Below, one piece after another: positions 4,402 to 41,992 of a stretch of DNA of 64,000 nt. The stretch's first letter is position 1; every line of letters begins with the position of its first letter. Where the stretch lies: NCBI GenBank assembly GCA_965204745.1, contig OZ242010.1, positions 2,400,001 through 2,464,000 on the forward strand. The letters run 5' to 3'. The notes under the pieces were generated by a model. It saw only the letters and a program-made list of their open reading frames with translations. It was not told the DNA's origin and did no database searches. A program made the translations under genes and the position numbers. Source of the stretch: Candidatus Latescibacterota bacterium. GTDB lineage: Bacteria; Latescibacterota; UBA2968.

Positions 4402-4771
4402 GGGGGCGACATGGATTCGACGGGGGTGGAGAGATGATGGCTGCGTGTCGAGGTGCCCAATCACCTCGTAAAACAATTGGGAAAAACGCAACTGCGGACG
4501 ATAACACGTACGCAATGGCTGCCTAACCAACCGTTACGCAGTCCGTTCTGTCAGACCTCGCCTGCGTGGTCTGGGTCAGGGCGCCGACGAGAGCAGGCTG
4601 GTTCGGGAGTTTCCGCTCGAGGACATCCGAACGAGACAAAATCGGGCTGGCATCTCAATGACCCTGTCTGTTGGGGCGCGGGATGCGAGATTTCAAATGA
4701 ATAGACTACACACGTAGATGCCGTTGTCAAACCGCTTTCGGACGCGGGTTCGATTCCCGCCGCCTCCACCA
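4402..4771 (+). ncRNA. ssrA: tmRNA; tag peptide ADDNTYAMAA* (4494-4526)
   Basis: 5' GGGGGCGACATGGATTCGAC, 3' GACGCGGGTTCGATTCCCGCCGCCTCCACCA, and an internal tag frame ending in AA-stop. Confidence 0.97.
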
Positions 4772-34075: not shown

Positions 34076-34151
<76 letters not shown>

Positions 34152-36400: not shown

Positions 36401-36937
36401 ACTCTGGCTACACTTCCATCAAAACAAGGATTGAAACAAATTTCGAGATACGCGAATCGTTTCGAGGCGGGAACTCTCGCTACACTTCCATCAAAACGAG
36501 GATTGACAAATGGGGAAAATAGCTTAGATTTTTTGGACATTATAGAGAGGTTGTGATGAGGACATTGAATCGACATTGCGATGGGTGATTGGGATTCAAT
36601 GCACGATGTTCATCGTGTTGGTAGGATTGATGCTACCGGTGCTCTGGGTGCTGTTGAAAGGGCGTGCGGGATAACCTTAAACAGAGGTAAGACAATGACA
36701 ACTGATGAAAAATTGATTGAACACGAGACGCGCATCTCTCGGATGGAGGGTATTATTGAGGAGATTCGCACGCGGCTTACAGGGATGGAGGCTGGTCAGC
36801 GCGAACTTGGCAGGAAAATCGACAGCGTGAAGCATACGATTTTGGTGGGGTTGCTGTTTATCACCGGCTTGTTGTCGAAGATGGCGTTCTTTGATTGATG
36901 CCTCTCGCTACACTTCCATCAAAACGAGGATTGAAAC
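36401..36937 (+). CRISPR. Orphan mini CRISPR array: 37-bp repeats at 36401-36437, 36473-36509 and 36901-36937
   Basis: Consensus (A/C)CTCTCGCTACACTTCCATCAAAAC(A/G)AGGATTGAAAC; one 35-bp spacer, then a 391-bp interval; no cas genes in the window. Confidence 0.75.
36695..36898 (+). CDS. Small coiled-coil protein with C-terminal TM helix (XhlA/DUF1640-like) between CRISPR repeats
   Basis: MTTDEKLIEHETRISRMEG...HTILVGLLFITGLLSKMAFFD; GAGG RBS; stop 2 bp before repeat 3. Confidence 0.65.
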   Translation: MTTDEKLIEHETRISRMEGIIEEIRTRLTGMEAGQRELGRKIDSVKHTILVGLLFITGLLSKMAFFD

Positions 36938-39515: not shown

Positions 39516-40118
39516 ATGCCGCGTAAAAATAGGTTTCTCAACATCGGCGACCCGGCCCCCTTATTCACGCTTCCCTCGCATCAGCAACGAGACGTGTCGC
39601 TGGCGTCACATCGAGGGAAAGACCGCGTCATCCTGACGTTTTTTCGGGGAACTTGGTGAAGGAGAAGCCGTCGTCAGTTGGCGACCGTGCAAGAACACCT
39701 TGACGCGTACACCCAACGCAACGCGACGTCTATTGCCATCGCCGCCGGGCAACAGGTCCGCGAACTGCGCGAATACGCCGAACGCAACGGCATCACCTAT
39801 CCGCTTCTGTTGGACGCAGACCAGAGCGTAATCAAAAGCTACGGGGTATATCACTATTTCGGCCTAGCGGGTCACAATTTCGCGTACAACATTTTTCGCC
39901 CGGCGACGTTCATCGCCGACAAACTCGGCTATCCGTTGTACAACTATATCGGCTTGGCGGATCGCAACCTCCGCAACACCATTGCCCGTCCCGCGACGTT
40001 TATCATCGATGAACTCGGCATGGTCCGGTATATGTATATCGGATCGAATCAGTTTGATTTGGCCGAACAGGAAGAAGTTCTCGCACACTTAAAATCGCTG
40101 AAGAGTGAGATCCAGTAA
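39516..40118 (+). CDS. AhpC/TSA (peroxiredoxin-like) selenoprotein with in-frame UGA at codon 48
   Basis: IGDPAPLFTL...VILTFFRGTW-TGA(39657-39659)-RRS continues in frame into track ORF 39678-40118 (YPLLLD, RPATFIID); hairpin GTCGTC-AGTT-GGCGAC 10 nt after the UGA. Confidence 0.8.
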
Positions 40119-40186
40119 GAGACTTCGTCGCCGCCTCGAATATCATCCAGATGCACTGAACAACCCGGCACCGTCGAGCAGGAAAA

Positions 40187-40228
40187 TCTCTCTCTACACG
40201 TCCATCAGTGAGAGGAGCGGATTGAAAC
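40187..40228 (+). repeat. Degenerate CRISPR repeat copy 4
   Basis: TCTCTCTCTACACGTCCATCA-gtgagaggagc-GGATTGAAAC matches both ends of the 37-bp repeat. Confidence 0.6.
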
Positions 40229-40278
40229 GCAAAAAGAAAAGGGTTGTGCTCGGCAGGCGATCTGTGTAAATTTTGCCT

Positions 40279-40390
40279 GCCCTTACAATGCAATGTAGAT
40301 CTCAATTTGGTAGAGTGGCTCGCCGAGGCAACTCGGTCAGCGGGTTGCGGGTTCGAGTCCCGTCATTGCGTTGTGGGGGCTATTTTTTTT
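40279..40390 (+). ncRNA. tRNA-like small RNA lacking anticodon and CCA
   Basis: 17-bp closing stem (40279-40295/40364-40380), D-like arm CTC-AATTTGGTA-GAG, CCGAG-GCAA-CTCGG, T arm GCGGG-TTCGAGT-CCCGT, T run; promoter TTGTGC-17-TAAATT (40244-40272). Confidence 0.7.
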
Positions 40391-40452
40391 TCCACTTCTA
40401 ACAAGGATTGAATGGCTTAGGTTTTTGGACATTAGCAACATTGAATCGACAT
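40390..40452 (+). repeat. Partial CRISPR repeat copy 5 plus a deleted copy of the sequence that follows repeat 2
   Basis: TTCCActtctAACAAGGATTGAA, then GCTTAG.TTTTTGGACATTA...ACATTGAATCGACAT, which matches 36522-36576. Confidence 0.6.
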
Positions 40453-40517
40453 AACGTAGATATGAACACATCGTTGACGCAGGCGTTTCGCCTAAATGCA
40501 ATGGCTGAACGACGCAG

Positions 40518-40557
40518 AGAAAAAGCCATCCCAAATTTATCGGGATGGCTTTTTTCT
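40518..40557. terminator. Bidirectional terminator
   Basis: AAAAAGCCATCCC-loop-GGGATGGCTTTTTT. Confidence 0.75.
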
Positions 40558-40761
40558 ATTCCATAACACCGCTTCCCTACCTTCTCGCCAACACCCGTGC
40601 GCGGGTTTGTGCAACGATGTCTTTTTGAGGCCCGGCGTTGGGGGCAGTTTTGCGATTGAGGAGTGCGAGGATATTTCTTTTGGAATGTACCATTTGTGCC
40701 TCTCCCTGCCCTGCATCCAAGTAGCCAGTAGTCAGTAAGTCAGTCCCCGCGCCCTAATCCC

Positions 40762-41655
40762 TCAAACCCTGCCAAATTCCAAAACGCTGTGGGCGATTCG
40801 CACCTCGAGGCCGATAGGCAGGACGCGGCGGGACTTGCCGTGGCCGTAGGGCAGGTCGCAATACACCGGGCAGGACACGCGCATAGCAAAATCCGCGAGC
40901 ACGTCTTCGAGTTGCCCCTCGGATTCGCACTCGGGTTCGCAACCCACAAATTCGCCGAACACCACGCCCGCGGCGCGATCAAATGCCCCGGCCATTGCCA
41001 GTTGATTCAGCATGCGATCTACGCGATAGGGCGGCTCATTCACGTCCTCCAGCGCGATCACCGCGCCTTCGCATTGCGGGAAAAACGCCGTGCCTGCCAG
41101 CGACACCATGAGCGATAAACACCCGCCGATCAGCGTGCCCGTGGCCTCGCCCTCGCGCAGGGCCGTCAAGGGGATGGGCGCGAACCGATGCGAACACACC
41201 GCGTCCCACAACGCGCTTTCGGTCTCGGCATGGAGACCCTCTGTCGTCACATCCGAACACAGGGACAGCCCGGAAAACGTGACCAGTGCCGCACGGTCAT
41301 AGATACCCAACTGCAACGCCGTCGTATCGCTCAGGCCGACCAACGCCTTGGGGTTTTGCGCGATCAACGCCCAATCCAACAAGTCCAAAATGCGGGCCGC
41401 GCCATATCCGCCACGCGCCACAAAAATGCCCTTCACATCTGTATCCGCAAACATCGCATGCACATCGTCTGCCCGCGCCCGATCCGTTCCCGCCAGATAC
41501 CGATCTCGTGCGTAGAGCGACTCGCCCTCGCGCACGCGAAATCCCCGCTGTTGCAAATACGCCACTCCCGGCGTCAACCGCTCGCGCTCGAATGACCCGG
41601 ATGGCGCGATGATCCCGACTGTATCGCCGGGTTGTAATTTGGAGGGAAGAGTCAT
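40762..41655 (-). CDS. LD-carboxypeptidase (S66 family)
   Basis: LQPGDTVGIIAPS, RGGYGAARIL, GLSDTT, LEDVNEPPYRVDRML, YGHG. Confidence 0.92.
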   Translation of the reverse strand: MTLPSKLQPGDTVGIIAPSGSFERERLTPGVAYLQQRGFRVREGESLYARDRYLAGTDRARADDVHAMFADTDVKGIFVARGGYGAARILDLLDWALIAQNPKALVGLSDTTALQLGIYDRAALVTFSGLSLCSDVTTEGLHAETESALWDAVCSHRFAPIPLTALREGEATGTLIGGCLSLMVSLAGTAFFPQCEGAVIALEDVNEPPYRVDRMLNQLAMAGAFDRAAGVVFGEFVGCEPECESEGQLEDVLADFAMRVSCPVYCDLPYGHGKSRRVLPIGLEVRIAHSVLEFGRV

Positions 41656-41693
41656 AGTGGTCAGTGGCGTCGTTGCATAAATGGCGATAGCCT

Positions 41694-41992
41694 GCTGTTT
41701 GGGGTAGCAAAAAGACAGGCTCCTTCGCAGATTGGGCATATTTGTCACCGCCACAACACCCTTTCTCACAAGGAACCTGTCATGGCTAAGATAGCCTCTT
41801 CCAAGACCTCCGTCAATGCCCCTCGTCGCCGGTGCTGTGAGACTTGTCTATCGGGTGCGGAACTAGGCGGCTTACGAGGCTGGCCTCAAGTAGCGGGGCA
41901 GTCTGACGTTTTGGATCACGCCTCGAGCCCTTCGGGGCTGGTACTTTCAAGGGCCGACGCAACGGGGGCGCAAACTTGGCGATCCAAACAGC
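41694..41992 (+). mobile_element. Putative MITE / internally deleted IS remnant
   Basis: Imperfect terminal inverted repeats GCTGTTTGG...CCAAACAGC; hairpin GACAGGCTCCTT...AAGGAACCTGTC directly before an ATG; no transposase and no clear target duplication. Confidence 0.4.

Follow-up and report, generated by a model that had tools for sequence, protein, structure and literature searches.

What does a gene do for its bacterium when it is folded like a tRNA and can neither be charged nor decode? The question is raised by a small RNA gene in the window, by which we mean the whole 64,000-nt stretch of Candidatus Latescibacterota DNA that was analysed. All positions are window coordinates unless stated otherwise, and the genome holding the window is referred to as G000. 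To our knowledge, non-decoding tRNA mimics in bacteria are mainly Y RNAs. The original prediction, made from the letters of the window, described a stand-alone mimic with a GNRA loop in place of the anticodon and no CCA end, and proposed for it either a decoy role or a part in a CreTA-like module.

The RNA is laid out in the arm order of a normal tRNA: acceptor, D arm, hairpin, T arm, acceptor (Table 1). The predicted T arm and D-like arm were both read in the sequence. Specifically, the D stem is ACTC/GAGT with one bulged T; TA-G precedes the D arm and one G follows it. The GCAA-capped hairpin is indeed present in place of the anticodon arm in this copy, and in full it comprises 10 bp, with one C-C mismatch and one G-U pair below the 4-nt loop. 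The variable loop is GGGTT, and TA separates the 3' strand of the closing stem from the T run. The wobble pairs of the closing stem can form on the plus strand alone.

Judged as a tRNA, the molecule possesses elbow-forming D and T loops; a 7-nt anticodon loop on a 5-bp stem is absent. Where a tRNA has a 7-bp acceptor with a free 3' end, the helix runs on to 17 bp, with the G-U pairs and the subsequent T run that had been predicted. The equivalent of the 7-bp acceptor is followed by T and then TGT, so no CCA is encoded, again as predicted. The start given earlier, 40244, proved to belong to the promoter, and the RNA proper begins at approximately 40279. The minimum free energy of the fold was -51.7 kcal/mol, as compared to -32.0 +/- 3.4 kcal/mol in 200 shuffles (z = -5.77); 0 of the 200 shuffles were as stable.

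Table 1. Features of the RNA locus and of the second CRISPR relic, in window coordinates.
Feature	Position	Strand	Basis or remark
Second relic: repeat, spacer, repeat, ORF, repeat	36402-36937	+	Sequence
Relic repeats	36402-36437, 36474-36509, 36902-36937	+	
Relic spacer, 36 nt	36438-36473	+	
Relic ORF, 67 aa, apparent hydrophobic C-terminal helix	36695-36898	+	
Degenerate CRISPR repeat, I-C-like 3' part at 40203-40228 ending AGCGGATTGAAAC	40190-40228	+	Directly upstream of the RNA
Putative promoter: TTGTGC (40245-40250), 17 nt, TAAATT (40268-40273)	40245-40273	+	Sequence
tRNA-like small RNA, ~103-113 nt	40279-40392	+	Sequence, fold, covariance model
Closing stem, 17 bp including three U-G wobbles	40279-40295 with 40364-40380	+	
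D arm, loop AATTTGGTA	40299-40316	+	
Hairpin in anticodon-arm position, loop GCAA at 40328-40331	40318-40341	+	
T arm, GCGGG-TTCGAGT-CCCGT	40347-40363	+	
Run of nine T	40383-40391	+	
Strongly degenerate I-B-type repeat (..CACTTCTAACAAGGATTGAAtgg)	40393-40417	+	Directly downstream of the RNA
Remnant resembling the leader of the small-ORF cassette (36515-36580)	40418-40460	+	Compared by eye
Stem-loop with flanking A and T runs	40520-40556	.	Likely two-way terminator

Standard annotation tools did not recognize the gene, in keeping with the expectation that tRNA finders would call no sound tRNA here. ARAGORN made no call at the locus. At gathering thresholds, the Rfam matches in the window were the tmRNA and one tRNA only, leaving the RNA locus unmatched, and six related loci were likewise without a match. 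In E-value mode, the tRNA model RF00005 reached 25.7 bits against a gathering cut-off of 29; its alignment spans the acceptor, D and T arms and skips the middle of the RNA. The Rfam mascRNA model scored 17.6 bits against a cut-off of 42.5. The RNA is single-copy in G000, where the remaining BLAST matches span the T-arm region of the query alone. The small RNA gene is real, and its product can neither be charged nor decode.

The parent of the gene is apparent from the tRNAs of the same genome. The tRNA-Gly(CCC) of G000 has a T arm (GCGGGTTCGAGTCCCGT) identical to that of the RNA and the same unusual D stem, ACTC/GAGT, with GGTAGAGTG. Under the covariance model described below, it is also the top-scoring real tRNA of G000, at 53.4 bits. 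ARAGORN called 49 tRNAs in this genome, among which tRNA-Gly with the anticodons tcc, ccc and gcc are all present; the tRNAs inspected mostly carry an encoded CCA, which the RNA lacks. In a scan of approximately 185,000 species genomes for the D and T pattern, most exact matches showed normal tRNA spacing. When exact-pattern loci were passed through ARAGORN, the overlapping tRNA was tRNA-Gly at loci L018, L024, L030 and L038, and tRNA-Thr at an archaeal locus. Because the T arm and D stem are common to the RNA and tRNA-Gly(CCC), and because tRNA-Gly recurs at the pattern loci, the RNA is, judging by these identities, a remodelled paralogue descended from tRNA-Gly(CCC).

The putative promoter predicts a transcription start at the first base of the closing stem. 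The original prediction had proposed TTGTGC-17-TAAATT, and this held in part: the hexamers are present and the motif recurs in five homologues, while its match to the consensus is weak (approximately 7 of 12 positions) and a generic promoter scan made no call. The recurrent form, TTGYGY-N17-TAnnTT, ends 5-6 nt before the start of the stem in G000, G016, G018, G002 and G020, and the sequence around it differs among copies. The motif is weaker in G014, with GCGATA as the second hexamer. The equivalent in the metagenome locus L050 is TTGCTG-18-TATACT, equally far from the stem. It is reasonable to credit the RNA with a putative promoter of its own. Further downstream, the stem-loop at 40520-40556 lies before a convergent LD-carboxypeptidase gene (40762-41769, minus strand; identified by Pfam). 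The same hairpin occupies the same place in G016, and it likely closes both the RNA locus and the LD-carboxypeptidase gene.

Homologues were found in close relatives. BLAST detected one in 3 of the 20 other genomes searched from this genus, as against 0 of 40 further relatives, and an exact-pattern scan of genome contigs matched only three Latescibacterota relatives. A covariance model, R1, was built from five sequences: G000, G016, G018, G002 and L050. Locus L051 was kept out of the seed owing to a 2-nt register shift, and the MAFFT alignments A2-A5 were set aside as their outer stems were misplaced. Over 151 Latescibacterota genomes, R1 scored 105.5 bits in G000, 97 in G016, 94.4 in G018, 86.8 in G002 and 70.6 in G020. 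Among the matches listed, all others were at or below 57 bits and 75-78 nt long, except for one of 138 nt in G014, which on inspection is a sixth copy with a large insert in the hairpin. Thus, at least 5 of the 151 genomes were positive by R1, all in one genus; diverged copies may be among a further 964 weak matches. The original prediction had looked to a covariance model of homologues to decide the matter; R1 indeed separates the family from tRNAs, and pairs that change on both sides were seen.

Covariation was evaluated in a model-fitted alignment of 10 sequences, namely the six Latescibacterota copies together with L050, L105, L117 and L051. Paired cells made up 96.9% of this alignment, as compared to 75.6% in shuffles and 34-47% with slid partners. 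Changes on both sides were found in 13 of 23 pairs, including 8 of 9 in the closing stem. These figures come from related sequences, and the phage tRNA-likes included may be independent tRNA derivatives. Moreover, G000, G016 and G018 are approximately 89% identical to each other and so offer few independent comparisons, and covariation in the cloverleaf is expected of any tRNA-derived sequence.

The part of the helix beyond the model and the normal acceptor is more telling. A further 6-9 bp are formed in G000, G016, G018 and G002; in G020 the extension resumes after an internal loop, and in G014 the helix reaches approximately 30 bp. The extensions differ in sequence between lineages and still pair, and the helix ends in a U run in each of the 6 Latescibacterota copies. 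The stem extension is more family-specific support than cloverleaf covariation. The D and T loops are invariant among copies. The hairpin cap, by contrast, varies: G000 and G016 have GCAA, G018 has UAAU, L050 has UUCG and G020 has a loop of 7 nt, with long inserts at this position in G002 and G014. The lower hairpin is partly unpaired in G016 (G-G and U-U) and in a strain variant. Since the loop varies among copies, the GNRA tetraloop emphasized originally is incidental and not a feature of the family. From the comparison of copies, the conserved core is the tRNA elbow and the long closed helix.

The suspicion that degenerate CRISPR repeats flank the RNA was well founded, and the link is stronger than first seen. 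On the left, 40203-40228 is identical to the resident 37-nt I-C repeat at 24 of 26 positions (E = 0.002 genome-wide and 2e-6 locally) and is the best solo match to that repeat in the whole G000 genome. On the right, 40400-40412 matches the array repeats of G016, G020, G014 and G002 at 13 of 13 positions. The RNA in the window thus has one repeat on each side, I-C-like on the left and I-B-like on the right, and no spacer. The stretch after the right-hand repeat, 40418-40460, has a seed match to the leader of the small-ORF cassette (GCTTAGGTTTTTGG vs GCTTAGATTTTTTG).

That cassette is part of a second relic nearby, whose three repeats are identical to the I-B array repeat of G016 at 34/36, 31/33 and 34/36 positions. 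Its 67-aa ORF belongs to no Pfam family. A protein atlas gave, as a lead only, small phage proteins including the XhlA family. The genome of G000 encodes a type I-C system (Cas3, Cas5c, Cas8c, Cas7, Cas4 and Cas1) with 194 copies of the 37-nt repeat, and also has a small array of a 30-nt repeat near an I-B-type Cas7 gene; both systems are more than 0.9 Mb from the window. In a separate region of the genome, GGATTGAAAC motifs spaced approximately 2.4 kb apart at 1.89-1.92 Mb were considered and rejected, as they lie inside 12 tandem paralogous genes and are unrelated to CRISPR. Finally, a low-depth contig from a public run (depth 3.6) joins 40163 to 40440, without the 276-bp module 40164-40439. 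The module is therefore dispensable in at least one strain, and its loss as a whole is a weak hint that it behaves as a unit.

In relatives, the same RNA stands at large arrays. In four of them (G002, G014, G016 and G020), it lies at the old, or trailer, end of a CRISPR array, in array orientation and between degenerate repeats, and I-B cas genes accompany three of the four arrays (G002, G016 and G020). The G002 locus comprises the I-B genes for Cas7/Cst2, Cas5, Cas3, Cas1, Cas2 and Cas4, followed by an array of at least 71 repeats. The RNA, oriented like the array, comes after the last, variant repeats and is itself followed by another degenerate repeat. In G020, the array leads to a repeat-bounded slot with a 47-aa ORF of membrane-anchored look, and then to repeat, spacer, repeat, RNA and degenerate repeat. 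This 47-aa ORF and the 67-aa ORF of the window have no sequence similarity. In G014, the order is array, repeat, RNA, repeat, a second structured RNA with a T arm, and degenerate repeat; neither of the cas markers searched was found in this genome. In G016, an I-B Cas7 gene and an array matching approximately 140 repeat ends precede the RNA-bearing units by 3.8 kb, and the RNA unit consists of an I-C-type repeat, a spacer, an I-B repeat, the RNA and another I-B repeat. The I-B-type Cas7 gene lies upstream at approximately 21 kb in G016 and 11 kb in G020.

The G018 genome has the RNA with no recognizable repeats nearby, so any function must be independent of adjacent repeats. The flank downstream of the RNA, with its terminator hairpin and convergent LD-carboxypeptidase gene, looks syntenic between G000 and G016. 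The simplest history suggested by this layout is that G000 once had an array orthologous to that of G016, that most of it disappeared along with the I-B cas genes, and that the trailer cargo stayed behind. Literature on tRNA-like elements with CRISPR arrays, trailers, Cas6 and type I-B yielded no natural case among the papers listed, where the engineered Haloferax t-elements did appear, and the placement of such an RNA between the last CRISPR repeats was not found described in the literature searched.

Similar RNAs occur in phage DNA. The metagenome locus L050 and the viral contig locus L119 carry look-alikes of identical score, the score of L050 being inflated by its presence in the R1 seed. 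The closing stem of the look-alike has 11 bp. Its D arm, bulged T included, and its T arm are the same as in the host RNA, and UUCG caps its hairpin, which has 8 bp and the same C-C mismatch. In L050, the look-alike lies within a Mu-like head module, where it occupies the space that separates the MuF-like from the virion-morphogenesis gene and is encoded on the opposite strand to them. This layout is typical of an accessory gene with expression of its own. The look-alike carries promoter-like hexamers, with neither a U run nor an array. When the pattern was relaxed, 25 viral contigs matched. Among 17 viral model matches examined, ARAGORN called 13 tRNAs, several with odd loops, and left 4 uncalled. 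Phage tRNAs normally have a 7-nt anticodon loop and decode. The resemblance between the host RNA and phage tRNAs or tRNA-likes is greatest in the D and T arms; unlike them, the host family has long closing stems, U runs and CRISPR-trailer sites. The look-alikes may have been derived independently from tRNA-Gly.

No conserved neighbour gene was common to the host and phage copies, and GenBank phages gave matches of T-arm length only to the window RNA and to the phage look-alike. A search with the Mu-like major head protein gpT against the genome holding the window gave no match. The 492 spacers from five genomes had no match at E <= 0.001 among 270 kb of viral and metagenome tRNA-like loci; an earlier spacer search gave short background matches only.

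The nearest known RNAs are the YrlA Y RNAs, whose arms are permuted, whose ends emerge from the anticodon-stem side and which are encoded near rsr, the gene for Ro60. The RNA studied here is likewise bacterial and non-coding, imitates the elbow of a tRNA with D-like and T arms, is non-decoding and has its 5' and 3' ends in a long stem. Unlike YrlA, it has the normal arm order, as had been stated originally. The Ro60/TROVE domain (PF05731) had 0 matches in G000 and was matched in the control genomes of Deinococcus and Bacteroides, so that the absence of a Ro60 gene first noted for the window holds for the whole genome. Based on the absence of a TROVE gene and the unpermuted arms, we rejected identity with the Y RNAs.

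CreTA systems are reportedly CRISPR-repressed toxin-antitoxin RNA pairs, a description attributed to Li et al. 2021. According to Cheng et al. 2021 (PMC8501985), known CreT toxins work by sequestering tRNA: they are tiny ORF-bearing RNAs that trap rare tRNAs and lie inside cas operons, and the seed of CreA (approximately positions 1-5 and 7-11) matches the creT promoter beside a PAM. As described there, CreTA resembles the present locus in being a small RNA gene near degenerate repeats or mini-arrays of type I systems with tRNA-related biology. It differs in that the RNA here is itself a tRNA mimic, sits at an array trailer or orphan site, and has no seed match that we could find.

The guide-to-promoter match that would mark a CreTA-like module, as originally proposed, was searched for and not found. 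The 192 I-C spacers and the leader and trailing pseudo-spacers, compared to window positions 40001-40700, gave a best match of 16/24, which is not above background. The RNA-adjacent spacers of G014, G020, G016 and G002, compared to their own loci, gave at best 12/18. A search of the cargo promoters at five loci for the seed (positions 1-5 and 7-11, one mismatch) beside a TTC PAM found none, TTC not being established for this I-B system. A spacer of the G016 mini-array has a 15/16 match with a TTT PAM approximately 132 kb away in G016, and 13 nt of the window pseudo-spacer (36438-36473) recur exactly at genome position 2,894,077; both are within reach of chance. A repeat-spacer-repeat unit stands directly upstream of the RNA in G016, G020 and G014; in the window the RNA has a single repeat on each side and no spacer, and in G018 it has no repeats.

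The mascRNA at the 3' end of MALAT1 and the Haloferax t-elements lack their own promoters; RNase P and RNase Z release them from longer transcripts. They are tRNA-shaped and non-decoding like the RNA described here, which differs in having a putative promoter. In Haloferax, engineered tRNA-like t-elements can yield crRNAs without Cas6 (PMC4326828); this ties tRNA-like elements to crRNA production by an engineered route, not a natural one. Mini-arrays and stand-alone repeats in cas loci are described by Shmakov et al. 2023 (PMC10120712) as degenerate repeat pairs round a spacer with a decaying distal repeat. An origin from terminal array units is proposed there, with guides against cas or toxin promoters. 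The repeat pairs and the decaying distal repeat are likenesses to our loci; the structured-RNA cargo is the difference, as a term search of that paper gave tRNA once, in the reference list, and no such cargo.

Several explanations of this RNA were weighed. Its near-threshold score with the Rfam tRNA model and its clear tRNA-Gly descent could mark a decayed or unusual functional tRNA gene. A 4-nt loop leaves it without an anticodon, the CCA is missing, the acceptor has 17 bp, ARAGORN is silent, and the tRNA-Gly set of the genome already covers tcc, ccc and gcc. Decay is contradicted by intact pairing, on which the original prediction had rightly preferred a stand-alone tRNA-like gene to a decayed tRNA, and by conservation across species. 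We consider the tRNA-gene explanation very improbable. The position of the RNA straight after the last repeats, in the same orientation in four genomes, would also suit a terminator, insulator or processing signal at the array end: the stem and U run would stop read-through from the array, and RNase P or RNase Z, attracted by the tRNA shape, would trim the precursor at its end. The stem and U run are terminator-like in 6 of 6 Latescibacterota copies, and the engineered Haloferax elements that make crRNAs without Cas6 (PMC4326828) lend processing some credibility. Termination would need no more than a plain hairpin, yet the D and T loops show no variation, a promoter-like motif is conserved just upstream of the RNA, the gene persists in G000 and G018 where no array remains, and the phage look-alike has neither U run nor array. 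As a matter of general knowledge, RNase P acts poorly on a fully paired 17-bp acceptor extension, which would make the RNA a poor substrate. An array-end signal is thus possible but unlikely.

The same surroundings could instead reflect an oversized old spacer, in which captured phage DNA with a tRNA-like gene now persists as a neutral relic. The spacer-like slots bounded by repeats, the look-alike in a Mu-like phage and the phage-like small ORF of the second slot all suit such a capture. Neutral decay would not keep the closing stems of G000, G002, G020 and G014, which differ at most positions and still pair, and the promoter motif and U run are kept too. Based on these compensatory changes, capture may explain the origin of the gene and not its maintenance, and we find a neutral relic decidedly improbable. 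A CreT-like RNA toxin guarding CRISPR would be harmful in itself, e.g., by sequestering a tRNA-handling enzyme; the effector complex and a repeat-flanked pseudo-spacer would repress it, and loss or block of Cas would lead to arrest. This would fit the degenerate repeats around the RNA in the window, the repeat-spacer-repeat units directly upstream of it in G016, G020 and G014, a second slot whose small membrane-type ORF with an XhlA-like phage lead suits a toxin, and the sequestration of tRNA by known CreT toxins (PMC8501985). Moreover, about 10 nt of seed would suffice. The defining guide-to-promoter match failed to appear in three tests, however, and the RNA stands without repeats in G018, approximately 1 Mb from the cas genes of G000, and in G014 without either cas marker searched. 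A CreT-like toxin is accordingly no less doubtful than a neutral relic.

The explanation that we favour, tentatively, is that of a separately transcribed, non-decoding mimic derived from tRNA-Gly(CCC) that acts in phage-host conflict. The gene was observed, as were its fold, its descent from tRNA-Gly and its place in CRISPR trailers; from these we infer that the RNA would be transcribed, would act in trans and would engage a partner. The parts that shape a tRNA are kept, namely the elbow, which the D and T loops form, and the stack of acceptor and T helix. Those needed for decoding are lost: in place of the anticodon loop stands a capped hairpin whose length varies, and the acceptor helix is lengthened to 15-30 bp, leaving no free 3' end and no CCA. 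The long stem with its U run may double as the terminator of the RNA. The gene would be inherited as cargo of the array trailer, in a slot between the last degenerate repeats. In G000, the cas genes and array would have been deleted, with the flanking repeats and the second cargo slot (36.4-36.9 kb) remaining. In trans, the RNA may bind, titrate or distract a factor that reads the tRNA shape and not the anticodon; candidate partners are a tRNA-targeting nuclease, RNase P or another tRNA-handling enzyme. A trans-acting shape mimic is favoured because the shape, the closed end and the separate unit are kept, and because CRISPR-trailer and prophage settings are typical of conflict genes. A decoy role for the RNA, as originally proposed, is plausible.

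A broader idea, speculative and on balance unlikely, is that the trailer slots carry working genes, such as the tRNA mimic and a small lysis-type membrane protein, which together would provide immunity or addiction linked to the array. The mimic would be the RNA effector of this layer, either a toxin released on Cas failure or a decoy against tRNA-cleaving weapons.

The RNA differs from the Y RNAs in its architecture, in having a clear parent, tRNA-Gly, and in its reproducible home between the last CRISPR repeats. The proposals made for it are directly testable, as the RNA is short, its predicted boundaries are given at base level, and natural strains with and without it appear to exist. If the role in phage-host conflict is true, an RNA component would join the CRISPR-linked accessory functions, and array trailers would be able to store functional cargo. 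If the cargo slots indeed form an immune or addiction layer, they would represent a new kind of CRISPR accessory, and the first that is tRNA-shaped.

A single public-run contig (depth 3.6) lacked the tRNA-Gly(CCC)-derived small RNA, hereafter the mimic. Specifically, window position 40163 was fused to 40440 in this contig, and the missing 276-bp unit, 40164-40439, comprised the RNA together with both of its flanking repeats.

Further features were found in the window, elsewhere in the source genome, and in related Latescibacterota genomes (see table). In the mini-array relic of the window, the 67-aa ORF appears to encode a C-terminal hydrophobic helix. No Pfam family was found for this ORF; as a lead only, the protein atlas pointed towards small proteins of phages, with the XhlA lysis family among them. 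An equivalent slot between repeats in G020, a related genome, contained an unrelated 47-aa ORF whose product looks membrane-anchored.

Features in the window, the source genome, and related genomes
Feature	Location	Position	Details
tmRNA	Window	4402-4771	One-piece, ordinary; tag ADDNTYAMAA
tRNA-Phe(GAA)	Window	34076-34151	
Mini-array relic	Window	36402-36937	Repeat, 36-nt spacer, repeat, 67-aa ORF (36695-36898), repeat
Degenerate I-C repeat copies (2)	Source genome, outside window	1474384-1474406; 1475047-1475067	
Tandem paralogous genes (12)	Source genome, outside window	1,890,331-1,919,929	763-901 aa
Hybrid mini-array	G016, locus L056	17114-17190	I-C-type repeat, spacer, I-B-type repeat
Second structured RNA	G014, locus L098	1420-1610	~150 nt; minus strand; next repeat-bounded slot

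In the I-C cas locus of the source genome, cas4 had a degenerate I-C repeat on either side (22/23 and 19/21 identical). The I-C-type repeat of the hybrid mini-array was identical to the source genome's I-C repeat at 35 of 37 positions; Cas8c (I-C) was not found in G016. Each of the 12 tandem paralogues carried the motif CGGATTGAAAC within its coding region; the likeness of this motif to a CRISPR repeat end is due to chance.

The second structured RNA of G014 was a four-way junction closed by a long stem; it included a hairpin resembling a T arm, as well as a U run. It scored 27 bits against R1, the covariance model of the mimic family, and had no Rfam family. Finally, an exact 27-nt match to the T-arm region of the mimic was found in Gordonia phage GMA2 (KR063281.1, 60319-60345), where no feature is annotated. 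This phage site may be an unannotated tRNA-like gene.
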